64,000 nucleotides of DNA from Candidatus Dojkabacteria bacterium (GTDB lineage Bacteria > Patescibacteriota > Dojkabacteria > SC72 > JAFGCJ01): the NCBI GenBank assembly GCA_016932785.1, contig JAFGCJ010000002.1, forward strand, positions 337,777-401,776, given 5' to 3'. Shown here piece by piece: positions 34,714-55,071 of the stretch. The position numbers and the translations under genes were made by a program. Position 1 is the first letter of the stretch; each line of letters starts with the position of its first letter. A model generated the notes under the pieces. It did not search any database, was not told the DNA's origin, and saw nothing but the letters and a program-made list of their open reading frames with translations.

Positions 34714-35171
34714 AAAATAATAAGACCTGTCACCGCAGACGCTATAGAGCTCACCAGTACAGCGCCGGCACTTACATCTTTTGCGTAACGAATATTTACT
34801 TTGTACTCCTTAGACACTGTGTCGCATACTGCCTCAATAACACTGTTAAATGCCTCCGATATAAGCACAAGTCCTGCAACTAGAGCCAAAGCAACCCAGT
34901 CCGAATGTCCTATCCCCAAAATCAAGCCGCCAACAACAACAAGAGCAAGGGCGACAATCTGAATTCTAAAGTTACGCTCGTTCTTTAATATGAGCTTTAG
35001 TCCTGAAACAGCAAATCTGTAACTTTCGAAAAAGTTTCTTGCGTCGTACTTATGATTCTTTCTATTAGAGTTTTCTTCAACATAACAGATATTCTCGGGA
35101 CAAGAGCATGACTGAGCATTGTCAGAAGTGTTATTTTGTCCATCTATTTCAGAGTTTTTTTCTTTTTCCAT
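34665..35171 (-). CDS. dgkA: Diacylglycerol/undecaprenol kinase family protein (DgkA) with N-terminal extension
   Basis: The core RFAVSGLKLILKNERNFRIQ...SEAFNSVIEAVCD...AKDVSAGAVLV matches the prokaryotic DAGK family. About 45 extra N-terminal residues contain SCSCPENIC. Confidence 0.8.
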   Translation of the reverse strand: MEKEKNSEIDGQNNTSDNAQSCSCPENICYVEENSNRKNHKYDARNFFESYRFAVSGLKLILKNERNFRIQIVALALVVVGGLILGIGHSDWVALALVAGLVLISEAFNSVIEAVCDTVSKEYKVNIRYAKDVSAGAVLVSSIASAVTGLIIFWPYLWNLLKEIANIG

Positions 35172-36393
35172 TTGCAGCTACCTGTTCTAATATCTTATAT
35201 GTCTGAGCTGCCGTATTTTCCCAGGTATAGCCTTCAGACCTAATCATCCCAGATTCTCCTAGTTCCTGAGCAAATGTGTCATCAGTAGTAACTTTGTAGT
35301 AGGCTTGCGCAACTGCTTCGGTATCCTCAGGATCAACCAGCAATGCACCATCTCCCAGTACCTCAGGATAGCATGATCTATTGCTTGCAACAACCGGAGC
35401 CCCACATCTCATGGCTTCAAGAGGAGCAAACCCAAATCCTTCATATAACGAAAGATGCGTAAATACACTACAACCACATATGAGGTCATTCAGGTCTTCG
35501 TCTTCAAAAAAGCCCGTGAAATAAACATATTCCTCAAGACCAAGGTCTGCTATAAGATATCTAACCTCTGCAAGAAAGGTATTCCTCATATCAAGTCTGG
35601 TAAAATCACCTCCCGCCAAGACCAGATACGGAGGATATTTTTCTGATTGACTCTTGTACATTTTCCTTAAAGCGGCATAGGCTTTGATCAATCCCGGTAC
35701 ATTCTTATTTTTCTCTACCCCAGAGTAATACATAATATACCCTGTCTTAATAACCTCTTTCGGCAGGTATTTCAGGAGAACATCCATATCCGGTTCCACT
35801 TTCCGAAATCTATCTGAAATCCCAAGGTAAACAGGCAAAACTTTTTCCTTAGGTATCTTTACATACTTAAGAAGATCCTCCTTAGTTTTAATAGAGTTCG
35901 TAATTACTCGATCGGCTTTTGCAACACGTCTAAGAGCATTATGATACTGGAACTTTCTTATCCAATCGAGGTATTTGGGAGCTGAGGAATATCTATTCAA
36001 TATGGGAAATGCTAAATCATGAATCATTACAACTGTCTTGGTTTTCCTTAACGGAAACCCTCTCCAAAAGTAGGGGCAAAAATACACATCCGGAATCTCC
36101 TCCCTCAAAAGAGCATCAATAGCTGGTCTATACTGCCTAAGCCACCAAACAAAATTCAATTTATCCGATGCCCTACATGGCCCGATATTTATGGTACGGA
36201 TAATATCAGGATAATCTCGAATTGTAGACTCAATCGTTGTCGGAGAATTGAATGTCAATAGATAGTAGATATCGTCGCGAGAATTATCATGACTTTGTTT
36301 CACCATATTAGAGACAACTTCTTGGGTATACCTACCTGGCCCACGATTCGCAAACTGGTCCTGAGTTGTTGTCGCATCTATAACAATCTTCAT
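35149..36393 (-). CDS. Glycosyltransferase family 4
   Basis: 414 aa with a GT-B C-terminal motif: LSLYEGFGFAPLEAMRCGAPVVASNRSCYPEVLGDGALLVDPED. Confidence 0.85.
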   Translation of the reverse strand: MKIVIDATTTQDQFANRGPGRYTQEVVSNMVKQSHDNSRDDIYYLLTFNSPTTIESTIRDYPDIIRTINIGPCRASDKLNFVWWLRQYRPAIDALLREEIPDVYFCPYFWRGFPLRKTKTVVMIHDLAFPILNRYSSAPKYLDWIRKFQYHNALRRVAKADRVITNSIKTKEDLLKYVKIPKEKVLPVYLGISDRFRKVEPDMDVLLKYLPKEVIKTGYIMYYSGVEKNKNVPGLIKAYAALRKMYKSQSEKYPPYLVLAGGDFTRLDMRNTFLAEVRYLIADLGLEEYVYFTGFFEDEDLNDLICGCSVFTHLSLYEGFGFAPLEAMRCGAPVVASNRSCYPEVLGDGALLVDPEDTEAVAQAYYKVTTDDTFAQELGESGMIRSEGYTWENTAAQTYKILEQVAANGKRKKL

Positions 36394-36440
36394 TTCGATT
36401 TATCGCGAATTATACATCACTAACAAACCAGTGCAAAACA

Positions 36441-38285
36441 TCAATCTTCGACAACCCTATAAACATAAAGAGTTTTATTCTTAAGCTCAACCTTCTTCTC
36501 CAAAACAAGCCATTCTTGACTTTCAAGCAAATCTAGACTCCCATAATCCCCTTTGTCTTCATACCCTTCCAATACGATGAATCCAACTTCACTGATTTCA
36601 TATTTCTCAATTTTTTTCTTGAAAACATTGATGTCGTACCACTTGAATGCATAGTACTCACCCGGTTCGGGAACATACAGCATACCCTTCTTCGGGACCC
36701 ACTCAAGTAGATGCCAGTTCCACTGCGGATCAAACTCTAAGTCTTTACTATAAAAAGCGGGTAGATGAGTCCAACCTATATCATTCATCCAAACTCCATC
36801 TTCTTCATCAAAGTTGTTCATTACTTCTCTGCATTCCATATTTACTCCCCACTTAAGTGTCTGAGAAACTTGACCGTTAAGCAAAAGAAATGCCAGACTA
36901 ACAGATGCAGTTATTGAGCCAAGCAAAAACACATATGCAGATTTGAATAAAAAGAAATTCTTATCTTTAAATCGACGAGCGAAGCAGAAAAATGCAAGAC
37001 CCGAGATGAGTATGACATTTAGTAGAGCTTTAATCACAACAAAATCCTCCTCAAAAAACAATCCTACAGCAACCAGTAGAAACGTAATTAAAACAGAAAA
37101 TATAACTAACCTCTTTCGTCGCAAACCCTCTTTCAGGAAAAACACATACATGATCACAATCAGAGGCACAACAGGAAACAGATATCTGCCATAGGAAGCC
37201 CGGAATATATATACCCCAAGATATGAGAAAAGAATACACGAAGACATCACCATATTAAAACGACTTTTTTTGACCCATTCTATAAACGAGCTTAAACTGA
37301 ATAGAACAACGGGAACAATAATTATCTTAGGGACAGATATAAACGTAAAAGTTCTTGGATACACAAGCTTCCCAAAATAGGACAAAAACAAATTTACAGC
37401 TCGAAAACCCATCTTCAGGAATCCTGGACTTCCATCATAAATTGGTATGTTATATATGGTTTTGGCCTCTTCCTCAACGAGATTGGCCGTCGCAAATTTA
37501 GGAGTAAAATGAGTAGCCGCCCATTCAAATCCATTTTGAATCAAGCCAAGAGTATTCGCCAGAAAGATGTTTACAGGAATAATTGGCGTGCAAAACATTA
37601 ATATTATGAAGACAACAGACGGAAGAAGCAACAAGAATGTTCTTCCCAGAACCGTCTTTAGTAAATTTGCCGTACTCTTCTTGTTCTTCCTCCAAGCCTC
37701 TATACAAATATACAGAATAAAACCAGGGATAATAGCAAAAAAAACATGATCTTTAGCATCAAGAACCAAAACCAACAGAAGTCCTTGTAGTATCCAGCTC
37801 TTCTTTTCAAGCACTATATAAATAAAGAGTAAAAGAGAAAAAACGGCCGGAATCTCTCTGTAGTATGTAGGAACAAGTTTCAAAAAATCGAAAGTAGTTG
37901 CAAAAAGAAATACCCCAGCAAGGGCCCAACCCCGAAGTTTGAAGAATTTCTTAAGTATTAAATAGAAAAGAACACATGATGCCGCCCCTAAAAATATATG
38001 AAACAGAGTAGCAACAAATACTGAAGGCCCAGTAACCCAATAAACAATAGCCACAGGAATTTTGAACAGAAATCCATGAACACCGACAGCATAGTTGCCT
38101 ATCCACTTTCCCTGTCTTAAAAGCTCAGAAATAATCATGGTCTCCCGCAGGTAAATACTTTCGTCTGAAACAATGTTTCTGAAAAAAGTAACCGCAATGC
38201 CATAACAGACTACCCCAAAAACAAGAATCCAGAGCCCATATTTTTCTATAAAGCTGCGAATTTTTTTATTAAACATTGTCGGCAA
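36441..38285 (-). CDS. GT-C-type polytopic membrane glycosyltransferase (ArnT/PMT-like) with soluble C-terminal domain
   Basis: 614 aa with about 12 hydrophobic helices, an acidic first loop (VSDESIYLRE) and a ~140-aa C-terminal soluble domain. Assignment rests on architecture and context only. Confidence 0.6.
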   Translation of the reverse strand: MPTMFNKKIRSFIEKYGLWILVFGVVCYGIAVTFFRNIVSDESIYLRETMIISELLRQGKWIGNYAVGVHGFLFKIPVAIVYWVTGPSVFVATLFHIFLGAASCVLFYLILKKFFKLRGWALAGVFLFATTFDFLKLVPTYYREIPAVFSLLLFIYIVLEKKSWILQGLLLVLVLDAKDHVFFAIIPGFILYICIEAWRKNKKSTANLLKTVLGRTFLLLLPSVVFIILMFCTPIIPVNIFLANTLGLIQNGFEWAATHFTPKFATANLVEEEAKTIYNIPIYDGSPGFLKMGFRAVNLFLSYFGKLVYPRTFTFISVPKIIIVPVVLFSLSSFIEWVKKSRFNMVMSSCILFSYLGVYIFRASYGRYLFPVVPLIVIMYVFFLKEGLRRKRLVIFSVLITFLLVAVGLFFEEDFVVIKALLNVILISGLAFFCFARRFKDKNFFLFKSAYVFLLGSITASVSLAFLLLNGQVSQTLKWGVNMECREVMNNFDEEDGVWMNDIGWTHLPAFYSKDLEFDPQWNWHLLEWVPKKGMLYVPEPGEYYAFKWYDINVFKKKIEKYEISEVGFIVLEGYEDKGDYGSLDLLESQEWLVLEKKVELKNKTLYVYRVVED

Positions 38286-38393
38286 GCGGAAATATAATTT
38301 CCCGGAACACCCAAAAAGATTTTATCACAATGAAACTAAGTTTACTTTGGTACATCCAAATGGTATAAACTCTTTCAAGAAATGATAATCATC

Positions 38394-38525
38394 ATGGACC
38401 TAACAATACTGGCATTGACTCTCTTGCATCTGATTCAGATGATATTCTATGATCAAATGATCACATACAGCCTTGTAATAGCATCGTTCTTGCTTATAAC
38501 TAGATTTTTCTTCGGGAAAAAATGA
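38394..38525 (+). CDS. Possible 43-aa hydrophobic peptide
   Basis: My translation: MDLTILALTLLHLIQMIFYDQMITYSLVIASFLLITRFFFGKK*. Its stop overlaps the next ATG (ATGA). Confidence 0.25.
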   Translation: MDLTILALTLLHLIQMIFYDQMITYSLVIASFLLITRFFFGKK

Positions 38526-38782
38526 TTGAGACTCTACTAATTATATCTATTCTAACAGTTGCATTTTTCAATATACACCTAACATTGAGCGATCTGCTTA
38601 CCACAATCAAAGCGACCTCAAAAATTGACTCCTCAAGAATTTCCTTTGCATTGGCAATTGCTATCTGTGGCTCGGCTTTTTTCTATCTCAAGCTTGGCAA
38701 CAAAAGTCCCATTTCGTTACCTATACTTTTCCTGGCGTGCCTACTTCTTTTCTGGATTGGAATGAAAATCTCTAACAAATAG
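38522..38782 (+). CDS. Small membrane protein (3 predicted TM segments)
   Basis: 86-aa ORF, strongly hydrophobic, on the opposite strand to the flanking glycosylation genes. Confidence 0.4.
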   Translation: MIETLLIISILTVAFFNIHLTLSDLLTTIKATSKIDSSRISFALAIAICGSAFFYLKLGNKSPISLPILFLACLLLFWIGMKISNK

Positions 38783-38789
38783 CAACATG

Positions 38790-39377
38790 TTATTGCCTGT
38801 CGAATTTATTTAACAGGCGCGAAAGAATAATTCTGCTATATTCAATGATTGATCCAGCCCTATAAACAGGGACAAAGTCAAGATCACCTTCATAATTTTC
38901 CCCGTCTACAAGAAGAACACCATCTTTATAGGAGTCTCCCACTGAATACTTTAGTTCAGGACAATAATCTTGCCCAGATATTGTAAAAAAATACATTTTG
39001 CCACGAGAATTATCTATTTCCTTAAATCTAAAATTCATAGCATTGCATTTATTTACAAAGGGGCTTTGACGCAATACTGCATGCCGAACAACATCACCCT
39101 TACTGTCACGGACATCAATCTCAACATCCTTTGAAGGAGCAACACAATTATTAACAACAAGATCGAACCCCACCAGATTATTCTCGGTGGCAATAAAAGT
39201 CTGTTCCACTCTATTATCATCGACTTCAATTAATTCATAACCATCTTCTGCAAAATTCTGAGGCACAAAAATTTGAACAGTGTCATACTCTCTTACAATC
39301 AAAAGGTAACCAAAAGGGCTAAGAATTACCAATATAAAAATTGCACATAATATTTTTCCCAAAATCTTCTTTTTCAT
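38790..39377 (-). CDS. Membrane-tethered beta-sandwich-like protein; looks like a detached C-terminal domain of GT-C enzymes
   Basis: 195 aa with an N-terminal TM helix. The pattern VEQTFIATENNLVGFDLVV...VEIDVRDSKGDVV...FRFKEIDNSRGKMYFFTI...DGVLLVDGENYEGDLDF resembles C-terminal domains that I recall being fused to ArnT-like proteins. 4-nt overlap with the upstream membrane protein. Confidence 0.5.
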   Translation of the reverse strand: MKKKILGKILCAIFILVILSPFGYLLIVREYDTVQIFVPQNFAEDGYELIEVDDNRVEQTFIATENNLVGFDLVVNNCVAPSKDVEIDVRDSKGDVVRHAVLRQSPFVNKCNAMNFRFKEIDNSRGKMYFFTISGQDYCPELKYSVGDSYKDGVLLVDGENYEGDLDFVPVYRAGSIIEYSRIILSRLLNKFDRQ

Positions 39378-40756
39378 AAATAATACCTAGTCAAAATAAG
39401 CACGACACAAAAGAAATTGAAGAGAAACATTCCACATACAAGAATCCTGCATATTGCCTTCACAAATTTCGTCGGTACAATGCTAGTCAAACCGACAACC
39501 AAGATTGCAGCAATTGGAAAAAGTATAGGAAAGTAATACCGGCCCTGCGTGGGGAAACTAGTGTAACAGGTAGTATAAAAAACCCTAAGAAACATATACG
39601 AGAGAAAAGCCTCAAAAGCTACCACCAGGCTAACCAGAATTATAACATTCTTATCTTTTTTTCTTGACCTGAAATCTCTAACTGTTTTGTAAATAAACCT
39701 CAGTACAGCGATTATACACACCACTGCCGCTATAGCATAAACATACTTGGGAAGAAGTGTGTCCAACCACCCAAAATTACCGACAAAATTCTGGAACACA
39801 ATCTTATACCTGGGAAAAACGGCTGCTTCAACATACCTGAAAAACGGAAGATTCCTACAATTATCAACGTATTCAACAAAGTTATCCCGAACTATACCTG
39901 TATTCCCAGCTGGATTCGGATAAAGACTTTTAAACAGGATCACATTCCGAATAAAATATGCCAGAGGTATAACCATCGGAACAGCGAACACTACGAACTC
40001 TTTCCACCTAAATTTCTTTATGATTCTTATCCCAAATACAAAACATATTATCGGCACAAAGATTAGAAACTGTGCCTTTGATAATATTCCCAAGACGCAC
40101 CACAGGGAAGCTGCTACATAATCTATCAACACCAATTCCTTTCGGTTAAAAGCTTTAAGCACATAGTAAATTGAAGCCATAGAAGAGGTAAAAAGAAGTA
40201 CATCATTATTCACCCCTGAACTTATAAACATATACATCGGCCAAAAATTAGCTACGGTCACAATAGCTAATCTCACATACTTGTTTTTTGTTAAAAATCT
40301 AGACGCTCTTTCGGAGTAAATAAAAGATGCCACTGAAAGAGCAACACCAACTATACGAAGGATAAACAACACTGTCATCATTCCAAAACCTGAAAACATT
40401 GCATAAAAGATAGCTCCAATTATATAGTACGCCGGAGGATGATTGAAGACGTGGGCCGCATTAAATGAATCAACATCAGTAGAAGATTGTTTTTCGAAGT
40501 CGAAGTGATAATTCCAATTATGAAAGACTCTGTTTGATTGATTTACTTCAATTTCCTTCTCTATCGAAGGCGAATCCTCTAGAAAGTTGCTATCATATAT
40601 ATCGCTTCTATTCGGAATCCTTAGATTCTCAGCAATAAATTGGACATATCGAAGATGAGCCTGCTCATCAGGAACCTGAAAGGGAGGAATTATTGTAACC
40701 CATAGAAAACCCAGCACAATAAATAGAACAAGCAGGTTTTTAAAAGGTTTTTCCAC
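39374..40756 (-). CDS. DUF2142-like polytopic membrane protein (putative GT-C glycosyltransferase)
   Basis: 460 aa with more than 10 TM helices. The N-terminal loop IIPPFQVPDEQAHLRYV carries the PDE..H motif I associate with DUF2142. Confidence 0.6.
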   Translation of the reverse strand: MEKPFKNLLVLFIVLGFLWVTIIPPFQVPDEQAHLRYVQFIAENLRIPNRSDIYDSNFLEDSPSIEKEIEVNQSNRVFHNWNYHFDFEKQSSTDVDSFNAAHVFNHPPAYYIIGAIFYAMFSGFGMMTVLFILRIVGVALSVASFIYSERASRFLTKNKYVRLAIVTVANFWPMYMFISSGVNNDVLLFTSSMASIYYVLKAFNRKELVLIDYVAASLWCVLGILSKAQFLIFVPIICFVFGIRIIKKFRWKEFVVFAVPMVIPLAYFIRNVILFKSLYPNPAGNTGIVRDNFVEYVDNCRNLPFFRYVEAAVFPRYKIVFQNFVGNFGWLDTLLPKYVYAIAAVVCIIAVLRFIYKTVRDFRSRKKDKNVIILVSLVVAFEAFLSYMFLRVFYTTCYTSFPTQGRYYFPILFPIAAILVVGLTSIVPTKFVKAICRILVCGMFLFNFFCVVLILTRYYL

Positions 40757-40824
40757 AAAAATACAATCTAAATTAACTTAAAAATTATACTCTACTCAAG
40801 TATTTTTGTTAAAAGCTTCATAAA

Positions 40825-40833
40825 TGCTATAAT
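40825..40833 (+). promoter_or_regulatory. Extended -10 (TGCTATAAT) upstream of the S8 protease gene
   Basis: TGCTATAAT at 40825-40833. It argues against the TTG at 40835 as the start and favours ATG 40853 or 40862. Confidence 0.45.
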
Positions 40834-40852
40834 ATTGAAAATAACTTCATCT

Positions 40853-43819
40853 ATGCTCATCATGAGAAGGAAACTGCGAGTTGCCATTCTTTCACTTTTC
40901 CTAGTTTTTTCAGTTGTATTAATAGCAGGCCTGTTTATCTCACAAAGAGTACATTCAGAGAATGACCGACTATGGGATGAAGTCTATGAAATGACATCTG
41001 ACGAAAAGGAATTTGCTCTGGACAGAATTATTGTTAAGTTCAAAGACAACGCATCGGAGAAAGAAATCAAGAAGAGTTTATCCAGTACCACCGTCGATAT
41101 AGAAAAAACAAACCTAATATCAAAAAGAAACGTCTACTCTATTTACATTTCCGAAGAAAGATCAACAGACGAGGCTGCCAAGTTCAGCCTTTCCGGATTA
41201 AGTTCAAAAACATCAGAGGACCGGGATGGGCGGGAAGAAAAAATTGCCACTCTCCGAGAAGCACTTCTTGGATATCTCAAGGATCCAAACGTCGAGATAG
41301 CTCAACCAAGCTATGTCCATAGATTCTCCACCTGGATCACAAACGGCGTCAGAGATCTTCCCGATGACTATAACGCGTCAGAACACTGGTACTATGACAA
41401 AGGAAATCTGGGACAAATGTGGCAAGACCAGGACTGCGGTACCGGAGGATCCGGATGCGGCGGCGACAACAATATTGTTGTCGCAGTCTTAGATTCAGGT
41501 CTTGCATACGAGGACCACACAACCGACTATTTTCCAGCCTACACAGGAGATCCCACAGCTTATGACTTCTATACCGCATCAGAATATAACAACAGTAACG
41601 GATTCTCTTTATACACAAATTCAGATGAGACCGGATGCGATGATGGCGACGATGACGACGGAAACGGATATATCGATGACTGTCACGGCCTAAACGCTTA
41701 CGAACAGGCAATCTGCAACTATAACTCATGCACAACATCGCAAGAATCTGAAATCGGCCATCCAAATGACGACTACGGGCATGGAACATTTGTAACAGGA
41801 CTTATATCTTCGATTGTAGAAAATAACGCCGGAAGTATATCACCAGCCCCTAATGTATCAATAATGCCAATAAAGATTTCCGAGAGAGTCTCACACAGTT
41901 TACCAATGTATGTCGGAGACCCTCCTTCACCAGCGATTTTCACCGAAACAATTATCTATGGAATTGAATATGCGATATCAGAAGGTGCAGATGTAATCAA
42001 TATGAGCTACGGATCAAGCAGTTCAAACTATATAGAAGAATACTTCATTAAGGAAGCATACAACAACGGCATAACTCTAGTAGCCGCTGCAGGTAATGGC
42101 TTTGGAGATGCAATAGAATATCCGGCAGCATACTCTGAGGTAATAGCCGTAGGAGCAACAGACAGCTCAGACAACAGAGCAAACTACTCAAATAGAGGAA
42201 GCGAAATGGACTTAGTTGCTGCTGTCGGAGATGGATCCGGTACCGGAAACGCAGCATGGCAGCAAAGTATTACTATGCTTGACACCAATGACTACGGCAC
42301 CTGTCTTGTCACTGAATATACTGATGAAACATCTTGTACCACAAATGGATACTCATGGATTGGAGGAAGATGTATCGATCCCTACAATGAAAATGCCTTC
42401 GACTGCATTACATCAGGACTTGACTGGGAAATCGGTGACTATAGTGCAACATCTACATTTCATGGAATTGGAACCTCATACGCATCACCGCAGGTAAGTG
42501 CCGCAGCAGCATTAATAAAGGGATCGGCAAATTACCCACAAAAACCTAGCGAAATAAGGAACTTTCTTAGAATAAATACAACATCACTCTCTAGCGGTTT
42601 TTCTAAGGATTTTGGTTTTGGACTTCTCAACTTCGAAGGCATAACAAATTTCGACTATGTTATGAGATTGATCCATAGCGGTAACTCAAGAGGAAATACG
42701 GATATCAGTGACTGGGACTATGGATACTGGAAATCCGAATGTATGAACAGCGGATTTCTTCATGGTCTAAGCATGAACACAAGCACATATGATCTTAACG
42801 GCATGGTTTGTGACGATACAGGTACTGACCTTATTGAACCTAGTTCTTCCTACAGCGTTCACACATTTAACGGTGGGAACTCTCGCGGTTCTACGAACTC
42901 CGGAGACTGGGACTACGGTTATTGGAAAGGCGAATGTGGTAATAATGAATACATTACAGGCACGAGTATGAAAACTTCCACCAGGGATAGTCAATCTATA
43001 CTTTGTAGAGAATATAACGATGATAACATCGCCATGTCTTGGGAATATAAAAAGTACACAATCCCAGGCGGCGATCGTGGATATGGTTCAACAGCGGCCG
43101 GCGATTGGGACTATGGTTACTGGAAATCCCAATGCAGTGTATATGAGATGGCCGTTGGTGTAAGTATGAGCCCAACATCCAGACATGATCACGGACTCTT
43201 ATGCCGAAGATATGAAGAAATCCCAAGCGGACACATGATAAGATTTTATGATGGCAGCAATTCCAGAGGGACTACTGCAGCCGGAGACTGGGCCTACGGC
43301 AGATGGAAAGGTGAGTGTAATGAAGCTAGCTTTGTAAAAGGTACCAGCATGAATCCGTCAACAGGTCAGCCAAGTGCTATGCTGTGCAAAGACGAAGATC
43401 CGTACCTTCTCGACAGTCCTCTTTCATACAATGTATATACTTACAACGGAGGCAACGATCGAGGATCAACAGCATCTGGAGACTGGGACTTTGGATACTG
43501 GAAGGGCGAATGTGCTGATGACGAGTTTATCGCAGGATTTAGCATGTATCCAAGCAGTGCTGGAAGCAATGCGTACGATCCATATTCCATAATATGTAAA
43601 AAATACGATCCCAGTAAGATAGATATAACATCGAACTATACAGCTTACGTTTACTATGGAAGTGAAGACCCAAGAGGAGATACTTCTACAGGAGACTGGA
43701 ATTATGGAAACTGGAAAGGCGAATGCGCATCAAACGAGATAATGACAGGAGTTAGTATGAACCCTTCCACAAAGATGCCTCACGCAATACTTTGTAGGGA
43801 ATACACTGTCGTACCCTAG
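40853..43819 (+). CDS. Secreted subtilisin-like serine protease (S8) with N-terminal prodomain and six C-terminal Cys-pair repeats
   Basis: Catalytic triad contexts VVAVLDSGLAYEDH, DDYGHGTFVTGLI and HGIGTSYASPQVSAAAALI. Ca-binding-type insert DDDGNGYIDDCHG. Prodomain-like LDRIIVKFKDNASEKEI...NVEIAQPSY. Signal anchor RVAILSLFLVFSVVLIAGLFI. Confidence 0.9.
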   Translation: MLIMRRKLRVAILSLFLVFSVVLIAGLFISQRVHSENDRLWDEVYEMTSDEKEFALDRIIVKFKDNASEKEIKKSLSSTTVDIEKTNLISKRNVYSIYISEERSTDEAAKFSLSGLSSKTSEDRDGREEKIATLREALLGYLKDPNVEIAQPSYVHRFSTWITNGVRDLPDDYNASEHWYYDKGNLGQMWQDQDCGTGGSGCGGDNNIVVAVLDSGLAYEDHTTDYFPAYTGDPTAYDFYTASEYNNSNGFSLYTNSDETGCDDGDDDDGNGYIDDCHGLNAYEQAICNYNSCTTSQESEIGHPNDDYGHGTFVTGLISSIVENNAGSISPAPNVSIMPIKISERVSHSLPMYVGDPPSPAIFTETIIYGIEYAISEGADVINMSYGSSSSNYIEEYFIKEAYNNGITLVAAAGNGFGDAIEYPAAYSEVIAVGATDSSDNRANYSNRGSEMDLVAAVGDGSGTGNAAWQQSITMLDTNDYGTCLVTEYTDETSCTTNGYSWIGGRCIDPYNENAFDCITSGLDWEIGDYSATSTFHGIGTSYASPQVSAAAALIKGSANYPQKPSEIRNFLRINTTSLSSGFSKDFGFGLLNFEGITNFDYVMRLIHSGNSRGNTDISDWDYGYWKSECMNSGFLHGLSMNTSTYDLNGMVCDDTGTDLIEPSSSYSVHTFNGGNSRGSTNSGDWDYGYWKGECGNNEYITGTSMKTSTRDSQSILCREYNDDNIAMSWEYKKYTIPGGDRGYGSTAAGDWDYGYWKSQCSVYEMAVGVSMSPTSRHDHGLLCRRYEEIPSGHMIRFYDGSNSRGTTAAGDWAYGRWKGECNEASFVKGTSMNPSTGQPSAMLCKDEDPYLLDSPLSYNVYTYNGGNDRGSTASGDWDFGYWKGECADDEFIAGFSMYPSSAGSNAYDPYSIICKKYDPSKIDITSNYTAYVYYGSEDPRGDTSTGDWNYGNWKGECASNEIMTGVSMNPSTKMPHAILCREYTVVP
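42674..43816 (+). repeat. Six tandem coding repeats (61-71 aa period) with consensus GGNSRGsT..GDWDYGYWKGEC....f..G.SM.pS......ilC..Y
   Basis: The DW(D/A/N) codons recur at 42710, 42905, 43103, 43286, 43481 and 43694, giving spacings of 195, 198, 183, 195 and 213 nt. Each unit has exactly two Cys. Confidence 0.85.
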
Positions 43820-43908
43820 ACGTAATTAAAACCAAAGACAGATACAGAAGGGACAATAGTGCTTGAGCTTCTTGTAAACTAATCGAAATACCAATAAAAT
43901 ATCCCTCG

Positions 43909-45438
43909 ATGAAGGCAAATTCTAAGGTAGTAGTACGCGGCTCAATAATAATGTTTATTGGAATTGTCGCCCGTACAATAATACTTTTCATAAGAAAAAT
44001 CTATATCGGTCGAGCTCTTGGTGCTGAAATATTAGGCTCATTTACTCTTGCGCACACAATATTCCAGATTGTTACACTCATTAGCCTTTTTGGGCTATAT
44101 AGAACTATAAACCGGTTTTCCCCTCAGTTCAGAACAGAAAAAAACGATAACAAGCTTAATACCCTGATAGGCACATTTCTAAAATTCTCAGTCTTACTCA
44201 GTATCGTTTTTACAATTATTGTCTTCGGTTGTGCCCCCTTCTTTTCAGATCTGTTCAATGATCAGCAGCTCGCTCAAGAACTGAGAATCCTCATTTTATG
44301 CACACCACTCTTTATAGGTATAAGACTACTCGTAGCCATCTCTACAAGTTTTGAAAACACGAAACTTGAAGCACTAATAGAGCATATCATGTTGACTATT
44401 ACCACAACTGTCGCCCTCGTAATTCTTGTATCCCTAGGAATCAGGGAACACGCAATATCCTACTCGTTCTTAATAGGATATGTCCTAAACCTCGCGCTCA
44501 CTGTATTTCTCACAAGGTACACAAATTTAAAGCATTTGAAGTTTTCAAAATTACTAAAAAACTTCGACAAGAGATATCTTTTTTACTCTATACCAATATT
44601 CATTTTTTCAGTATTAACATTTCTTACTCAATGGTTTGACACCTTCATATTAGGCTACTTTAATTCCAGCGAAGACGTCGGTGTTTATAATATAGCCCTC
44701 ACAATTTCAACATTGCCCACTCTTCTCTCAAGTTCCTTGAGTACAAGTTTCTTCCCTACAGTATCAAGACTTATTTCTTCTGGTGAACTCAAAGAGACTA
44801 AAAGACTGTATCGAGATATTATAAGAATTCTTTTGTTTATTACAGTTCCTTTAATGGCAACTCTAGTAGCATTTTCAAATGAAATACTTGGAGTTTTTGG
44901 AAAAGAATTTCATTCAAGCAATTTCCTAATGCTCTATCTCATATTCGGTGCACTCTTCACAATTGTTACTGGCCCTATTGACCTTGTTCTTACAGCATTA
45001 GACAAACAGAAAATGGTCACTGTTAATGCAATAATTTCTATCGTTGTATCAATAATCCTGAGTTTCTTGCTAATTCCAAAATACGGAATTTTAGGTGCAG
45101 CAATAGCAAACTCAGCAGCCATTTCGACACAAAGATTGCTTGGCTTGATCGAACTGAAGTTAATCAAAAACTTTACACCCTACACAATGAAGACATATTT
45201 TATTATTTTTGTCGGATCAGTACTCAGCTTATCACTGTATCTACTCAAGCCCTATGTCATTCCTGAAGTCATATACTCAAACATGTTACTGGCTATTGGA
45301 TTCCTGGCACTTTGCACTGTTGGTTCATATTCGGCATTCCTCATAATCGTTGTTCTTTTTAAACTTTATCACGAGAAAGACAAAAACCTTATAATAACAA
45401 CTATTAGAAAATTCATACCAAATGGCCTCCCAAATTAA
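43909..45438 (+). CDS. Wzx-like polysaccharide/oligosaccharide flippase (MOP superfamily)
   Basis: 509 aa with about 14 TM helices. The N-terminus VVRGSIIMFIGIVARTIILFIRKIYIGRALGAEILGSF is typical of polysaccharide biosynthesis (Wzx) proteins, and the gene is embedded among GT genes. Confidence 0.7.
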   Translation: MKANSKVVVRGSIIMFIGIVARTIILFIRKIYIGRALGAEILGSFTLAHTIFQIVTLISLFGLYRTINRFSPQFRTEKNDNKLNTLIGTFLKFSVLLSIVFTIIVFGCAPFFSDLFNDQQLAQELRILILCTPLFIGIRLLVAISTSFENTKLEALIEHIMLTITTTVALVILVSLGIREHAISYSFLIGYVLNLALTVFLTRYTNLKHLKFSKLLKNFDKRYLFYSIPIFIFSVLTFLTQWFDTFILGYFNSSEDVGVYNIALTISTLPTLLSSSLSTSFFPTVSRLISSGELKETKRLYRDIIRILLFITVPLMATLVAFSNEILGVFGKEFHSSNFLMLYLIFGALFTIVTGPIDLVLTALDKQKMVTVNAIISIVVSIILSFLLIPKYGILGAAIANSAAISTQRLLGLIELKLIKNFTPYTMKTYFIIFVGSVLSLSLYLLKPYVIPEVIYSNMLLAIGFLALCTVGSYSAFLIIVVLFKLYHEKDKNLIITTIRKFIPNGLPN

Positions 45439-46519
45439 GAAAAACACCCTTTACTACTTCATAGAAAAGTTTGATAAACATTATCTGACTAAAAACATCG
45501 GTATATTTGCAAAATACCTTAGCAATGATTTCAATATAGAATTCATTTCATTAAAAATTACCTCAGATCTAAAAGGTGTCCCCTACGTAGTAACCAAAAT
45601 ACCCTTTATAAAGCTGCTAAACAATCAGATTTACTTTCCATGGAAAGTGCTAATCAAAACAAAGAGAAATGACGTGCTCTGGGCTTACCCCGGACATTTC
45701 GGTGCGTTTGTAGCCATGGTTATATCTAGAATAAAAGGCTCCATACTACTTCTAAAAAGCGACTCCTTTCCTCTCTTCAAAAACATCAGAAATCCACAAA
45801 ACTTGCAAAACAAAATCAGCAATTACTTGCTCTACAGACTTCCAATTCGAGCTTCTAACATAATAATCGCCGAAACAAAGTCTACCAGAGACTTTCTTAC
45901 CCAAAGATGGCATATAGCTGAAGAAAAAATAGTCATGGTTCCAAACGGAATAATTCTGTCCGAATACAAAAAAATTGATAAATCGCTAGGAAATATACAG
46001 AGAAACAAATCTATCCTCTACCTCGCAAGAATTACTAAAACAAAAGGTTTTGATTTATTTATAGAGGCCATCAAGAAATTCAAAGACGAATACCGAATAG
46101 ATGTAGCCGGACCCGTAGAAGAACCTGAGATCTTTAATAAATATAAGAATGTTTTTGACCACCCTACCATTAACTATCACGGCCCTCTCTACGAGAAAGA
46201 TCTTTTCCGAATGCTAAAGAGATCGTATATTTTCGTAAATTCATCTAGAAGCGAGGGGTACAACAATACAATACCAAAAGCTCTATTTTTTGGATGCAAA
46301 GTTGTAGCTACCAACGTTGGCGAGACAAGAGATATTCTAAAAGACGGAGAATTTGGGATTCTATGCAAACCGGAGAAGGATCATCTCGAAGCTGCAATAG
46401 AAAAATGCATTGACTGGGATCCGGACTGGAAAGGAATACGCAAATACCTCTCCAATGAATTGAACTGGGAGAAAAATATAATTCCACTGAAAAGATCAAT
46501 TAAAAATTGTATGAAATAG
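45422..46519 (+). CDS. Glycosyltransferase family 4
   Basis: 365 aa with a GT-B C-terminal motif: NSSRSEGYNNTIPKALFFGCKVVATNVGETRDILKDGEFGILCKP. Confidence 0.8.
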   Translation: MASQIKKNTLYYFIEKFDKHYLTKNIGIFAKYLSNDFNIEFISLKITSDLKGVPYVVTKIPFIKLLNNQIYFPWKVLIKTKRNDVLWAYPGHFGAFVAMVISRIKGSILLLKSDSFPLFKNIRNPQNLQNKISNYLLYRLPIRASNIIIAETKSTRDFLTQRWHIAEEKIVMVPNGIILSEYKKIDKSLGNIQRNKSILYLARITKTKGFDLFIEAIKKFKDEYRIDVAGPVEEPEIFNKYKNVFDHPTINYHGPLYEKDLFRMLKRSYIFVNSSRSEGYNNTIPKALFFGCKVVATNVGETRDILKDGEFGILCKPEKDHLEAAIEKCIDWDPDWKGIRKYLSNELNWEKNIIPLKRSIKNCMK

Positions 46520-46522
46520 AGA

Positions 46523-47494
46523 ATGTCAAAAAATACCATTCGAAATATAGAAAAATCTGACAGGAACAAATGTATTCTTTCTAATCTTCCCAAAACCGAA
46601 TTCTGCATCCTCATGCTCAACTGGAATACTACAAAAGATACCATAGAAGCATTGGAATCCATGAAAAAACTCGAGATGAATAAAATGGAGGTATTTCTAC
46701 TCTTCGTAGGTGAAAAAAAAGAGGAAATCGAAAGAATTCAAAATGTGTTTCCGACGATCCACATATACCAGGTACCAAAGAATCTTGGCTTTGCCGAAGG
46801 TAATAACTACCTTTACCGAAAAGCAATTGCGATGTTCGACCCAAAATATATACTTCTCCTTAACACTGACGTAGTGGTTAAGGAGAATCTTCTCTCTACT
46901 CTATCCAAGATATTAGAAAACGACCCGAACATTGGAATTGCGGGGGTTACAAACTATTATTACCACGACCCCAGTAAGATTTGGTACAACGGAGGGAAAA
47001 TAAACAAGATTTCTGGAACAACATCACACGTTGAAGACAAAATATCTACAGAAAGGCTCTACCAAGAAACCGGATATGTGGTCGGAAGCTGCCTTGCCAT
47101 CAGAACTGAAATCGTAAGAAAACTAGCAGAGATATTCGACAGCAAACTATTTTCGTACACTGAGGACGTAGATTTGAACTTAAATGTACAAGAACTAGGA
47201 TACAAGACAGTCGTAACATCAAGAACAAGTATCCTCCACAAAGTAAGTCCAGTTGCCCCAAAGAATACTCCATTTAGAATGTTCTTCGAATCCAGAAACA
47301 GAATTCTTGTAATGAGAAGACACACAGATACTCTTGGATTCCTGGTCTTCATAACAAATTTCCTCATATTCAAAATACCAATATGGATTATAAGGGTAAT
47401 TGTTTCCGGTAATATAAGCTCAGTCGCAGCAATATTCAAGGGAGTTCTGGACGGCCTTGGGCTAATTTCTAGTAATTCAGACTATACAAAATAA
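46523..47494 (+). CDS. Glycosyltransferase family 2
   Basis: 323 aa. GT-A N-terminus CILMLNWNTTKDTIEALESM, GFAEGNN, a DxD-like LLNTDVVV, and a C-terminal TM region. Confidence 0.85.
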   Translation: MSKNTIRNIEKSDRNKCILSNLPKTEFCILMLNWNTTKDTIEALESMKKLEMNKMEVFLLFVGEKKEEIERIQNVFPTIHIYQVPKNLGFAEGNNYLYRKAIAMFDPKYILLLNTDVVVKENLLSTLSKILENDPNIGIAGVTNYYYHDPSKIWYNGGKINKISGTTSHVEDKISTERLYQETGYVVGSCLAIRTEIVRKLAEIFDSKLFSYTEDVDLNLNVQELGYKTVVTSRTSILHKVSPVAPKNTPFRMFFESRNRILVMRRHTDTLGFLVFITNFLIFKIPIWIIRVIVSGNISSVAAIFKGVLDGLGLISSNSDYTK

Positions 47495-49001
47495 CCCTAA
47501 AATTTCCTCTATCGTCAGTAAACTCTTCCTCAAAAACAGGAGTGACTTCCTGGAGCGATGAAACATTTTTCAATATGCGCTCGTTTGTATCCGAATAATC
47601 ATTTCCAGTATAGTCGACAAGAAGGTATATTAATTTATTTTCAATTATATATTTGTCGTTTAGCAGATCTATCCTACTTCTATTCCATCCAATATTTGTA
47701 TTTTGATCAGCAACACCCGAATTTCCATCAAAACAATACAGTGTTATTGAAGGCCAACTTACATACATCATATTATCGACATACCCCTCTCCTTCATCAC
47801 GAAAATACTCACACAGTTCTTTATGCGGTTGCCACCGATACCTAAAGTCGGAAACGTTCAAATCAACATACGTGACCAAAATCCATACGACTACGAGCAT
47901 CTGGAAAAGAGTAGTCATCCTACTGGATTTAAAATATGAAGCGACCCAATCTATAAAGACGGCCACAAAAACAAGCATGGGAAATATAACATAGTACGGA
48001 TATCTGCTGCCATGTGAAAAGGATGTATATTGTATGGAGAACAGAAAGAAAGTTACCGAAACCCACGATGCAAGATAAAGCACTTGGCTATTTCTAAAAA
48101 TCTTTTTACTGAATAGAACATATATAAACCCCAAAACACCAACAAGTAAAACGTACCGGTTCATATAAAACGTAATTCCATGAATAAAGCTCATCAACCC
48201 TATCTTTGAAAAGCTATTCAAAAGATTGTACTGAACCGCAGTTGTAACAAGACTAACATCGGAGGTGGACATATCGGGTTTGACAATATACTTCCGGACA
48301 AAATAGAAAGAAACACCAAAAATCAAAACCACGCCAGCTAGAACAAAGATTTCTTTGCTAAAAAGTTTCTTTTTCATAGAAATTACCTCTACAAGATAGC
48401 CGACACCAAAAGATACAAAAAGAAGTAACGCCGTAAGATGAGACATAAAAGAAAGACCAAACAAAAGACCTGCAAGTACAATAAAAATCATCCTGCCATT
48501 TTCGCGACCCTTTGTCCATAAAAGGAGCCCTATTACAAAGAATCCTACAACAAAGGGTGCTTTTTCTGCATCTGAAGAAAAAATCAAGAAATATTTGCTG
48601 AAAAGCACTAAACTCAATAGTACCAACCTGCTGAACTTTGACTTAAAGATTTTTTTTCCCAGGTAATCTAGAGCAAAGACTGAAGCTACAAATATTATAG
48701 ACGTAAGCAAATAGGTAGCCACAAAAATATCAGTAATCAGATACTTGTGGACAAAACCTATGAGAACAGGCATTAGAAATGGCCTCGTGCCAAGAACACT
48801 GAATCCCTCTTCCATGAAGGTAATTGATTTGACAATCATAGCGTAACTGTCTGCCGTGGCAAATCCAACTTCTCGAAGCTGAATATATTCATTAATCTTT
48901 AGGAGCAGATATATCAAACCTATTATTACAAGTGTACAACGAAACCAAAGATCCTCACGTTTTAGCAACTTTTCCAATGTTTTATTAAACTTGCTCTTCA
49001 C
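47469..49001 (-). CDS. GT-C-type polytopic membrane glycosyltransferase (ArnT/PMT-like)
   Basis: 510 aa with about 11 TM helices followed by a ~130-aa soluble C-terminal domain. Assignment rests on architecture and context only. Confidence 0.55.
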   Translation of the reverse strand: MKSKFNKTLEKLLKREDLWFRCTLVIIGLIYLLLKINEYIQLREVGFATADSYAMIVKSITFMEEGFSVLGTRPFLMPVLIGFVHKYLITDIFVATYLLTSIIFVASVFALDYLGKKIFKSKFSRLVLLSLVLFSKYFLIFSSDAEKAPFVVGFFVIGLLLWTKGRENGRMIFIVLAGLLFGLSFMSHLTALLLFVSFGVGYLVEVISMKKKLFSKEIFVLAGVVLIFGVSFYFVRKYIVKPDMSTSDVSLVTTAVQYNLLNSFSKIGLMSFIHGITFYMNRYVLLVGVLGFIYVLFSKKIFRNSQVLYLASWVSVTFFLFSIQYTSFSHGSRYPYYVIFPMLVFVAVFIDWVASYFKSSRMTTLFQMLVVVWILVTYVDLNVSDFRYRWQPHKELCEYFRDEGEGYVDNMMYVSWPSITLYCFDGNSGVADQNTNIGWNRSRIDLLNDKYIIENKLIYLLVDYTGNDYSDTNERILKNVSSLQEVTPVFEEEFTDDRGNFRVILYSLNY

Positions 49002-50149
49002 TTCGATTTTGTTTCTTCAAAATTAATGCCGCCCGCAATATATTCCCACTCAAATGGCTTAATTAGCTTCTCCATTCTAAGAATATCTTCCCTGCCAACA
49101 AGATCAGTCTTTCCTATTATTTTTTCCAGAGCATCAGAGAAATCCTTTCCCAGTTGCGCTATTTTAAGATTCGGAAAATCAACATCGATACCTTCAGCAC
49201 CAATTGGTGTCGAAATTACATATTTACCATTTCTCAATGCCTCAAAGATCTTAATTCTTGTCCCTCCCCCTGAGCTTAGTGGTACAAGACAAACATCTGC
49301 AGCACTAATATAATCCTCCAATATCTCAACAAATCCTACCACATCAACAAAATCATATGACTCAAGCTTATCTTTGAGATCTTCGGGAATCTCCCCGCTT
49401 CCTACGATCAACAGGCGTACGCTCTTGCTATGTAGTTGAAGAACAGGAACTACATATTTCAAAATATGCTCGAGAGCTTCTATATTTGGAGCGTATTTGA
49501 AATGGCCGTTGAAGTAGAATACCTGCTCGTCTTTAATTCCAAGTTCGCTTCGAACCTTCTCTCTTGCCTTCGGATTAAGTTGATACTTTTTTGAATCGAC
49601 ACCATTCCTTATAACTTGAATCTTGCTTGATACAACCCCCAGCTGATTAATCAGGAAATTCCGATCTACTTCAGACGTGCAAGTAATCCCCATAGCAAAA
49701 CGACAAAGGAAGTATTCGTAAATCTTTGCTATTCTCCAGATAGGATTTCCAACTCTCTTGAATCTTATGAATTCAACGTTCTGTTCATCCACAAAGTAAG
49801 GTACTCCAAATATTCTTAGCCAAAATGCATAAAGCCCCAGCCAAAATGAATTCACATAAACCAAATCTATTTTCTCCTTCCAGACAAGAAGTAGAAGTCT
49901 GATCATCAGCACAGGATTCATCATAGATATGATCCTGTTTGACGAATTAATAATAGGAATAGAATCAAAAGTTGGAGTAAGATCACCCTCATTCCTAACA
50001 ACAATAAAAACTTTGTAACGCTTAGCTAAAACCGAGTTCAGGTAAAAAATCCTGGTGGTTGCTCCCGAATAGGTATGATATGGATTGTAAGGACTAAGAG
50101 ACAGTATCTTTTTTATTTTCATAGTATCTATATGATCTCTTAAAAACAC
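48998..50149 (-). CDS. Glycosyltransferase family 4
   Basis: 383 aa. VRLLIVGSGEIPEDL...VCLVPLSSGGGTRIKIFEALRNGKYVISTPIGAEGI. An alternative start at 50122 gives MKIKKILSLSPY. Confidence 0.85.
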   Translation of the reverse strand: MFLRDHIDTMKIKKILSLSPYNPYHTYSGATTRIFYLNSVLAKRYKVFIVVRNEGDLTPTFDSIPIINSSNRIISMMNPVLMIRLLLLVWKEKIDLVYVNSFWLGLYAFWLRIFGVPYFVDEQNVEFIRFKRVGNPIWRIAKIYEYFLCRFAMGITCTSEVDRNFLINQLGVVSSKIQVIRNGVDSKKYQLNPKAREKVRSELGIKDEQVFYFNGHFKYAPNIEALEHILKYVVPVLQLHSKSVRLLIVGSGEIPEDLKDKLESYDFVDVVGFVEILEDYISAADVCLVPLSSGGGTRIKIFEALRNGKYVISTPIGAEGIDVDFPNLKIAQLGKDFSDALEKIIGKTDLVGREDILRMEKLIKPFEWEYIAGGINFEETKSK

Positions 50150-50993
50150 CTAAAAACCCAAGGAACTGGAGGAAAAACTGGTAGGTAGTTAAAAACAGCA
50201 CCATAGGAAAGTATTTCGTAAACAGAGACATCCTAAGTATCTGGAGCGCAGACCTCAAGCCATTCTTTATCTTCCCCCCACCCATTTTCCCACTTTTTTT
50301 CAAATCCTGATGCCCAGCTCCCCTTTCTATATGCCATTTTGTAAAATCAGCCAAACTCCCTCGTGCTTCATGATACACCGTCGCTTCAGGTACATAGAGA
50401 AATTTTATGTGTTTTTCCTTAAGCCTATCGCTAAGCTCTACATCCTCATTACCGGATTTTTGCTTATGACTAAAGCCCCCACATTCTAATAGTATTTGTC
50501 TTTCTATAGCAAAATTCCCTGTACACAGATGACCGGTATAATTATCTTCATCAACCTTCCACATCACCTTAAATCCAGGATAACCGCCACCCGGAAAACC
50601 CAGCCAGCTTATCGAGTCGGTAATATAACCCTGACCTAAAGGTATATGGATTCCTGATGTTGTTACCTTTTCCTTCCCTTCAATAATCGACCGGGAGATA
50701 GAAGCAAGCCATTTATTATTCATCGGATTCTGATCGTCATCAATCCAAACGATTACTTCACCGTGGGATTTATCTACACCTAACTGGCGGTAATAGCCAA
50801 AACCCTTGTTCATATCTTCCTCAAAGATCTTCACTCGATCGTCATGTGGTAGATTATCCCTTTCTAGTTTCCCCTTAGGCTGAGGAATTAGTACGACCTC
50901 AAAATCAAAATTCACATCCTGTTCCAATATCTGCTTTACAAGTGTATAAAGATTCTCACGAACAATCGTTATTATTACTACAGATACTTTCAC
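50094..50993 (-). CDS. Glycosyltransferase family 2
   Basis: 299 aa: MKVSVVIITIVRENLYTL..., DxD region VIVWIDDDQNP, and a C-terminal hydrophobic segment. Confidence 0.85.
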   Translation of the reverse strand: MKVSVVIITIVRENLYTLVKQILEQDVNFDFEVVLIPQPKGKLERDNLPHDDRVKIFEEDMNKGFGYYRQLGVDKSHGEVIVWIDDDQNPMNNKWLASISRSIIEGKEKVTTSGIHIPLGQGYITDSISWLGFPGGGYPGFKVMWKVDEDNYTGHLCTGNFAIERQILLECGGFSHKQKSGNEDVELSDRLKEKHIKFLYVPEATVYHEARGSLADFTKWHIERGAGHQDLKKSGKMGGGKIKNGLRSALQILRMSLFTKYFPMVLFLTTYQFFLQFLGFLGVFKRSYRYYENKKDTVS

Positions 50994-51009
50994 CAGGATA
51001 TAGATAATT

Positions 51010-51954
51010 TTATTTTTCTATCCTTTTAAGCCTTTCCAGCATGTCCTCAATAAGTCTTCGATTCACGGCAAGAAGTTCCGCAAGTATACCCAGTACAAAA
51101 ATCTGAACACCAATGACCAAGGATACAGCTCCAACAATAACCGACTGAACATGTCCTGTTCCATTTCCGGCCAGATAATAATAAAGAAAACGTCCCAGTA
51201 GGGCTAAACCTGCGATGAAAAACCCAGAAGAGAAGACACAAAAGGTCTTGAAGGGTTCATATACTGCATACATCCGAAGAATCGTACTTCCTGATTTTTT
51301 AACTTTTGTCCATATATTTTTAATGAGTCTGGACTCCCGTGTCTTAGGATTTGTTTTTATTTTCACCCAGGCAATATCAATTCCCTTCTTATTGGCCTGC
51401 ATTAATGTGTCAACTGTATAGGTGTAATTAGTAATTATGTTTATCTTTTGAAGAGCCTCCTTTGAATACGCCCGAAAACCACTCACAGCATCAGGAACCT
51501 TTTGACCCGAGAGAAATTGTGTTACAAAGCTTCCAAATTTCTGAAGAACTTTCTTAAATGGGCTGAATTCGTCAATCTTCGCAGTTTGCCGATCACCTAT
51601 AACTATTTCCGCCCTATTTTCTACAATAGGTCTGACCAAATCTGGAATAGCCTCCGATGGATACTGATTATCACCATCGGTATTAACTAATATGTCGGCC
51701 CCGTGTCTTAGCGCGTTATCTACTCCAAGTTTGAATGCTCTTCCAAGCCATCTTCTATTCTTTCCACGAAACGAGACAACATGCTGAACCCCAAGCTCCC
51801 TGGCAACCTTGACAGTATTGTCTGTACTACCGTCATCGATAATCTGATATTCAATCGTATCTATACCCTCAATTTTCTTAGGCATATTCTTAAATACAAG
51901 TGGGAGTGTTTCCTCTTCGTTAATACACGGAACCTGGATTATCAACTTCATCAT
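51010..51954 (-). CDS. GtrB/DPM1-like polyprenyl-phosphate glycosyltransferase (GT2 with two C-terminal TM helices)
   Basis: 314 aa: KLIIQVPCINEEETLPLV, YQIIDDGSTDNT, VNTDGDNQYP, and two C-terminal TM helices (FCVFSSGFFIAGLALLG, VGAVSLVIGVQIFVLGILAELL). Confidence 0.85.
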   Translation of the reverse strand: MMKLIIQVPCINEEETLPLVFKNMPKKIEGIDTIEYQIIDDGSTDNTVKVARELGVQHVVSFRGKNRRWLGRAFKLGVDNALRHGADILVNTDGDNQYPSEAIPDLVRPIVENRAEIVIGDRQTAKIDEFSPFKKVLQKFGSFVTQFLSGQKVPDAVSGFRAYSKEALQKINIITNYTYTVDTLMQANKKGIDIAWVKIKTNPKTRESRLIKNIWTKVKKSGSTILRMYAVYEPFKTFCVFSSGFFIAGLALLGRFLYYYLAGNGTGHVQSVIVGAVSLVIGVQIFVLGILAELLAVNRRLIEDMLERLKRIEK

Positions 51955-52011
51955 TTTTTAGTTTTAAATTTATAATTCATCAACAATCTATGTAATACCG
52001 AATTCTGAATT

Positions 52012-55014: not shown

Positions 55015-55071
55015 AAGAAAATATAAATAAAGGTCAAAATATATTATCAGAAAAAGGTTTTCACTTCAATC

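Follow-up and report, generated by a model that had tools for sequence, protein, structure and literature searches.

The stretch of DNA analysed here (the window; 64,000 nucleotides of contig JAFGCJ010000002.1 from a Candidatus Dojkabacteria bacterium) carries, at 40835..43819 on the forward strand, the gene of a secreted S8 serine protease that ends in two C-terminal three-repeat modules, and these modules are the subject of this report. Read as the maximal open reading frame (ORF) from a TTG codon, the protein is 994 amino acids (aa) long and, by its Pfam match and motifs, it is a Peptidase S8 (subtilase). Its catalytic domain (aa 212-596; 41468..42622, +) matches the Pfam Peptidase_S8 model at E 2.7e-31 with 109.4 bits, vs a gathering cut-off of 21.8, and the VLDSG (D220), HGT (H316), AAAGNG (N421) and GTSYASP (S548) motifs are intact, i.e., at the motif level the Asp, His and Ser residues occur in order together with the oxyanion Asn. 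Upstream lies a Fervidolysin-like N-terminal prodomain (aa 54-116; 40994..41182, +), recognized by PF22148 at E 2.3e-4, barely over the gathering score, and the basic and hydrophobic N-terminus (MRRKLRVAILSLFLVFSVVLIAGLFISQRVHS; 40862..40957, +), inspected by eye, is taken to be either a signal peptide or a signal anchor. There is doubt about the start codon: besides TTG 40835 (MKITSSMLIM...), the public record of the same protein, MBN2100746.1, places the start at the ATG at 40862, nine codons on (MRRKL...), and a Logan assembly calls a 988-aa version.

The last ~390 residues of the protease are made up of six diverged repeats, 61-71 aa apart. Repeat 1 (aa 606-670; 42650..42844, +) has its DWD motif at 42710 and its cysteines at positions 636/659, and is followed by repeat 2 (aa 671-736; 42845..43042, +; DWD at 42905, Cys 701/724), repeat 3 (aa 737-797; 43043..43225, +; DWD at 43103, Cys 767/790), repeat 4 (aa 798-862; 43226..43420, +; DWA at 43286, Cys 828/851), repeat 5 (aa 863-933; 43421..43633, +; DWD at 43481, Cys 893/921) and repeat 6 (aa 934-994; 43634..43816, +; DWN at 43694, Cys 964/987). 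All six carry the pattern D-W...K-x-E-C...G-x-S...L-C, including the W, K and G residues and the Cys pair, and repeat 5 contains a 5-residue insertion in the loop preceding the last strand. An earlier note, made from the letters of this DNA, had described six units at this spacing with two cysteines each; the codon positions that it gave for the DW(D/A/N) motifs are exact, and the tail indeed holds 12 Cys, one pair in each repeat. The array that it placed at 42674-43816 is real, but its first start has to be moved ~8 residues further upstream, to ~42650, because the unit includes the beta-strand ahead of the GN(S)RG loop.

The repeats share 35-54% pairwise identity at the protein level and about 57-67% at the DNA level, and every pairwise local alignment between them lies 14-32 standard deviations over shuffled controls. 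Tandem Repeats Finder detected no DNA-level tandem array of the repeats, which indicates that the copies are old; in agreement with the earlier note, these values leave little room for a recent duplication. A repeat hidden Markov model (HMM) built from other organisms only recovers six copies in the S8 ORF, with independent E values of 1e-12 to 2e-19, and finds no further copies outside this ORF in a six-frame translation of the window.

Judged by sequence comparison across the family, the natural unit is a module of ~185-190 aa composed of three ~62-aa repeats, and the S8 protease carries two such modules. A reading of the tail as six independent modules thus gives way to two tandem three-repeat modules, since 147 of 150 modules in the family have three repeats. 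A search with the 381-aa tail retrieved 25 proteins, all with three motif copies, the first copy being degenerate in two of the proteins, and a module profile built from an alignment of 27 triplets was then searched against 1.84 billion cluster representatives. It defines a family of 718 clusters (50% identity) at E <= 1e-3, 349 of which are reached at E <= 1e-30. Exactly three motif copies are present in 154 of 180 proteins. A single match over the whole length of the profile is seen in 166 proteins, and about ten have two such matches in direct succession, one of these aligning with three overlapping stretches; fractional repeat sets are seen solely as partial or overlapping profile matches. 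In the window, module 1 (aa 606-792; 42650..43210, +) comprises repeats 1-3 and gives a full-length match to the module profile at independent E 1.8e-59, with an AlphaFold2 predicted local distance difference test score (pLDDT) of ~90, and module 2 (aa 800-989; 43232..43801, +) comprises repeats 4-6 and matches over its full length at independent E 2e-61. In these matches, to a profile built from modules of other organisms, the two align at model positions 5-185 and 7-185. The partition into repeats 1-3 and 4-6 follows from these full-length matches together with the family architecture and the structural models.

The two-module layout recurs in an orthologue from a low-GC contig, P0049, which is 38.7% identical to the window protein over its whole length and whose lineage presumably also belongs to the candidate phyla radiation (CPR). 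Window module 2 shares 56% identity with the second module of P0049, vs 46% with window module 1, which implies that the module duplication is older than the split between the two lineages and was retained.

In agreement with the statement in the earlier note that the repeat is no named domain, searches of Pfam-A (2025 copy) and NCBIfam (2026) returned no credible or recurring family, either for the 381-aa tail at E <= 1 or for 27 modules and 88 single repeats, each at E <= 10. The module profile gave 0 matches at E <= 10 among all PDB sequences, and the repeat profile gave noise-level matches only. Several candidates were considered and rejected. ZirS_C was matched by 2 of the 27 modules and 3 of the 88 repeats, at E >= 0.0045, i.e., at noise level. 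The PAW domain of PNGase, which binds mannose and is represented by a mouse PDB entry, was matched at E 0.037 by a six-sequence profile and was gone at E <= 10 with the 88-repeat profile; the Pfam PAW model matches neither the tail nor the modules or repeats. A resemblance of the repeat motif to dermatopontin (PF14704) was rejected by hhalign: against real dermatopontins, as a single sequence and as a 22-sequence profile, the probability was 0.3-0.5%, and the Pfam model matches 1 of the 27 modules weakly (E 0.073). The Pfam Jacalin and B_lectin models do not match even at E <= 10, the PPC and P-domain models match neither tail nor modules, and ricin-B, CBM13 and CBM92 give no Pfam or PDB sequence match, the QxW and WExF motifs being not present. 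The hairpin repeats of the beta-flower fold are much shorter, and its Pfam families are unmatched (PMC10584680). No description of the module was found in the literature. By sequence, the module is therefore an undescribed domain family that is absent from domain databases.

The modelling of the six-repeat array that the earlier note had proposed yields a confident structure. AlphaFold2 models of module 2 (from the 27-sequence alignment; pLDDT 93.4, predicted template modelling score (pTM) 0.90) and of the six-repeat tail (pLDDT 90.3, pTM 0.85) are both all-beta, and all six modelled repeats show the same four-strand pattern: a strand, a loop of ~20 residues holding D-x-R...G-D-W-D-x-G, and three strands with short turns, the Cys residues following strand 2 and lying within strand 4. 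According to the DSSP strings of the models, strands 2-4 of one repeat and strand 1 of the next would form a four-stranded meander sheet, and the three meander sheets of a module would close via the N-terminal strand to give a pseudo-threefold arrangement. Foldseek found nothing in the PDB at E <= 0.001 for either model, and no beta-trefoil and no propeller in either list. Among the weak matches, the Vip3 toxin and jacalin-type lectins (ipomoelin, Parkia) stand at the top of both lists (E 0.004-2, TM <= 0.36), and transferrin-binding protein B is found in the six-repeat list only (TM <= 0.36). In BFVD, two unnamed viral proteins were matched at E about 3e-4 with TM 0.38-0.47. A six-bladed propeller formed by the six repeats was also considered; it is rejected, as no propeller is among the Foldseek matches and the family is built in threes.

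The motif is strongly conserved across the family. In 447 repeats the shared pattern is F...G-D-x-R...G-D-W-(D)-x-G-(Y/F)-(Y/W/F)-K-x-E-C...(Y)-V-x-G-V-S...H-x-(I/L)-L-C, with W conserved in 99%, K in 96%, the first Cys in 99%, the second Cys in 96%, G in 98%, D in 91% and S in 87%, and the two positions before the Lys hold an aromatic residue in 60% and 73% of cases. The Cys and aromatic positions that were singled out from the window alone are thus kept in homologues. The 4 repeats without the first Cys are also without the second; among 13 apparent single losses, the second Cys mostly falls in an alignment insert and at least 1 case is a truncated sequence. Such co-loss fits a disulfide pair, and from the sequences we infer that the Cys pairs of the repeats are oxidised as disulfides. 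Many myxobacterial members contain an extra Cys pair, formed by a C-C doublet at the repeat end and a Cys located in that repeat's first strand, which is not found in the CPR proteins. The catalytic domain of the window protease also bears cysteines, in two inserts: an Asp-rich one at 41636..41731 (DETGCDDGDDDDGNGYIDDC...C...C; Cys 268, 283, 294 and 299) and another at 42302..42406, between the oxyanion Asn and the catalytic Ser (Cys 490, 501, 513 and 524). The whole protein has 22 Cys, all of which could pair.

In the survey of phyletic spread and partner domains, likewise proposed in the earlier note, the few members of the 718-cluster family that have organism names are mostly Myxococcota (Myxococcus, Pyxidicoccus, Cystobacter, Minicystis, Vitiosangium, Corallococcus, Archangium and Polyangiaceae), the other named sources being Duganella, Pyrinomonadaceae and this Candidatus Dojkabacteria bacterium, and the partners are diverse secreted enzymes. 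Of 179 proteins, 99 carry the module at the C-terminus, 20 at the N-terminus and 18 internally, and 42 consist of it alone; these stand-alone members are about 200-250 aa long including a leader. The protease partners are S8, M57, trypsin, neprosin, papain C1, C25 and astacin; glycan-active partners include GH18, GH19, GH16, GH5, SKN1/KRE6, the GH79 C-domain and the PNGase F C-domain; and further lytic or toxin partners are CHAP, PI-PLC-X and aerolysin. PAN, PA14, ricin-B, CBM6 and F5/8-C co-occur as binding domains. One member, P0003, is a GH19 enzyme with the module at its N-terminus, and another, P0006, carries a separate MYXO-CTERM sorting tag downstream of the module. In this regard, a survey of myxobacterial GH19 enzymes described clades with appended modules that "could not be annotated", in a sister group of which a carbohydrate-binding module (CBM) of family 13 is carried (PMC10875029); these appended modules are candidates for the module seen in P0003. 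A degenerate DNA motif scan of genomes returned only 7 loci, 6 labelled as myxobacteria or uncultured delta proteobacterium and 1 as Comamonas. The latter match (742-777 of BNCN01000022.1, labelled Comamonas sp. KCTC 72670) lies on a contig of 68% GC that encodes an M57 metalloprotease with the module; this GC content and an architecture that is the same as in Myxococcus and Corallococcus proteins make the Comamonas label doubtful.

The protease gene sits in a long envelope-glycan cluster (35149..57152) with at least eight GT2 or GT4 glycosyltransferases, which also includes a DUF2142 membrane protein (39374..40756) and a Wzx/MurJ-like flippase (43909..45438). The gene of the P0049 orthologue is followed by a GT4/GT2 gene, the remaining flanking genes not being conserved with respect to the window. 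Outside the cluster, a 1055-aa protein with CBM96, bacterial Ig-like domains and a C-terminal Peptidase_M23 domain (30043..33210, +) is probably a large secreted cell-wall hydrolase, and a 573-aa protein (58045..59766, -) contains a GH18 (chitinase-type) domain. A 2418-aa protein (6128..13384, -) combines several Ig-like domains (Big_13, FlgD_ig, Big_6) with Peptidase_M23 and adds another large M23 enzyme to a genome that is very small. Together, the S8, M23 and GH18 enzymes of the window look like a lytic toolkit, and the nearby M23 peptidases and GH18 protein suit an organism living off other cells. Four long ORFs in the window, all on the reverse strand, gave no Pfam match at E <= 1e-3 or 1e-4: 52012..55014 (1000 aa), 15210..17495 (761 aa), 36441..38285 (614 aa) and 47469..49001 (510 aa). 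The GC content of 42001..44000 (0.427) is a local maximum vs flanking bins of 0.355-0.391, and its GC skew is positive, nearly all remaining bins of the window being negative; this anomaly may be a simple effect of repeats rich in Gly, Asp, Trp and Ser.

Taken together, we consider it reasonably probable, though far from settled, that the tail consists of two undescribed all-beta modules acting as a mobile, non-catalytic lectin- or CBM-like device that holds the protease on a surface polymer. This interpretation draws on the free placement of the module on unrelated lytic enzymes, on its stand-alone form, on its threefold symmetry and on its acidic and aromatic loop, and the targeting or binding role already suggested in the earlier note is compatible with the architectures (fusions to GH18, GH19, GH16, GH5, CHAP, M57, S1, astacin, PI-PLC and aerolysin, as well as single modules). 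In the proposed mechanism, a Cys-Cys staple would join strand 2 and strand 4 in each repeat, and the long loop of each, D-x-R...G-D-W-(D)-x-G-(Y/F)-(Y/W/F)-K-x-E-C, would form an acidic and aromatic site, so that a module would have three sites and the S8 protease six. Through avidity, both modules could then keep the protease on a surface polymer of repetitive structure. The target would most likely be a glycan, either of another cell (a host or prey) or of cell-wall detritus, and such docking would raise the local protease concentration at the target surface. A precedent is provided by CBM92, in which three subdomains with one Trp motif each form three working sites and which is attached to enzymes of diverse substrates; more generally, CBM92 and CBM13 are three-subdomain multivalent CBMs with an aromatic and an acidic residue per subdomain (PMC11039641). 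Binding as such, a glycan ligand and one site per repeat are what we infer from these likenesses, a glycan being our best guess for the ligand. Since proteins, chitin, glucans, peptidoglycan and lipids are all cut by one partner or another, a common "address" on target cells is a more likely ligand than the catalytic substrate. Several points weigh against this interpretation: the substrates of the partners are so different that they do not reveal the ligand, which might be something other than a glycan; the organism is a likely anaerobic CPR bacterium, and its Cys pairs are putative disulfides; the near-invariant W, K, G and C could be purely structural and mark no binding site; and slot-specific profiles for repeat positions 1, 2 and 3 fail to separate window repeats 1, 2 and 3.

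The location of the gene inside an envelope-glycan cluster, with DUF2142, a Wzx/MurJ-like flippase and many GT2/GT4 genes, would also suit a self-retention anchor, in which the modules bind envelope glycan of the producing cell itself and retain the protease at its surface, in the manner of SLH and other cell-wall-binding domains, and the GT4/GT2 gene adjoining the P0049 orthologue is in line with this. We regard it as unlikely, however, as in the Gram-negative Myxococcota the module is found on secreted enzymes and on small stand-alone proteins, the separate MYXO-CTERM tag of P0006 implies that anchoring is achieved there by another element, and the flanking genes of P0049 are otherwise not conserved. 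If instead the repeats bound protein (a substrate, an S-layer or a receptor) and not carbohydrate, the many protease partners and the one aerolysin-type toxin would be accounted for, as would the co-occurrence of PAN/Apple and FG-GAP, which are often protein-contact domains; yet fusion to GH18, GH19, GH16, GH5 and CHAP is the classic CBM position, in some of these proteins (P0003, P0005 and P0016) the module is the sole accessory domain, and sugar sites typically have a conserved acidic and aromatic motif of this kind (PMC11039641). Neither the fusions nor the motif is decisive, and protein recognition seems to us improbable to about the same degree as self-retention. A ligand-free role in folding, secretion or protease resistance, with a tail that would resemble the PPC or P-domain extensions of subtilases and is perhaps cleaved off, appears very unlikely. 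S8 enzymes often have C-terminal extensions, 99 of the 179 family members carry the module at the C-terminus, and in the window protein hardly any linker separates the modules from the catalytic domain, the two-module model reaching a pTM of 0.85. Nevertheless, the module is also N-terminal (20), internal (18) or alone (42) and is joined to enzymes of unrelated folds, no PPC or P-domain model matches it, and a long surface-type loop conserved in all three repeats is hard to square with a spacer. Within the targeting interpretation, a bolder and doubtful, if still conceivable, version is that the module represents a new lectin or CBM fold without a solved relative, a disulfide-stapled, pseudo-threefold three-sheet prism, that recognises a conserved cell-surface glycan and serves predators (Myxococcota, Duganella) and a Candidatus Dojkabacteria bacterium as a shared address label on proteases, glycanases, lipases and pore-forming toxins, the six-site array of the latter docking the protease on a host cell.

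If the module is a true binding domain, it would constitute a new CBM or lectin family of several hundred clusters, possibly with a fold that has no solved relative, and many secreted proteins that are now "hypothetical", in myxobacteria and in other soil bacteria, would gain an annotation. From the ligand one would learn what these predators and a Candidatus Dojkabacteria bacterium with a tiny genome grip on their targets. Host recognition and attachment by CPR bacteria are largely unknown (PMC12206443), and a predicted six-site array on a secreted protease near M23 and GH18 genes is a concrete candidate for such a role. The module is small, confidently modelled and repeat-symmetric, so its expression and crystallisation should be easy.

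Compared with known systems, the dermatopontins share with the module an extracellular location, repeated Cys-bounded segments and a short motif, W-x-x-x-C-x3-hydrophobic-x-G-x-x-S...C, but their conserved DRxW precedes the second Cys and not the first, and by the tests run they are not homologous. The PPC and P-domain extensions of subtilases occupy the same place, C-terminal to the S8 catalytic domain of a secreted protease, whereas the module has no sequence match to them, is found in various positions on enzymes of many classes and can make up a protein by itself. Beta-prisms (jacalin-type ipomoelin and Parkia lectin, and the C-terminal domains of Vip3) are pseudo-threefold and all-beta, with three four-stranded sheets, as is proposed for the module, and no other theme recurs among the weak Foldseek matches, which are not significant (root-mean-square deviation above 12 A, TM <= 0.36); unlike the Greek keys of jacalin, the strand order of the module looks, from the DSSP strings, like an up-and-down meander. 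The beta-trefoils of CBM13 (ricin-B type) and CBM92 are built from three pseudo-repeats and 12 strands with one aromatic-containing motif per repeat (PMC11039641), and they too are appended to secreted enzymes with very different substrates or stand alone. The module differs from them in its repeats of ~62 aa vs ~45, in its predicted disulfide staple and in its D-W...K-x-E-C motif in place of QxW or WExF, and it has neither a sequence match to them nor a beta-trefoil neighbour in Foldseek. An accessory targeting module on a secreted hydrolase is of a familiar kind; what is new here is the family and, perhaps, the fold.

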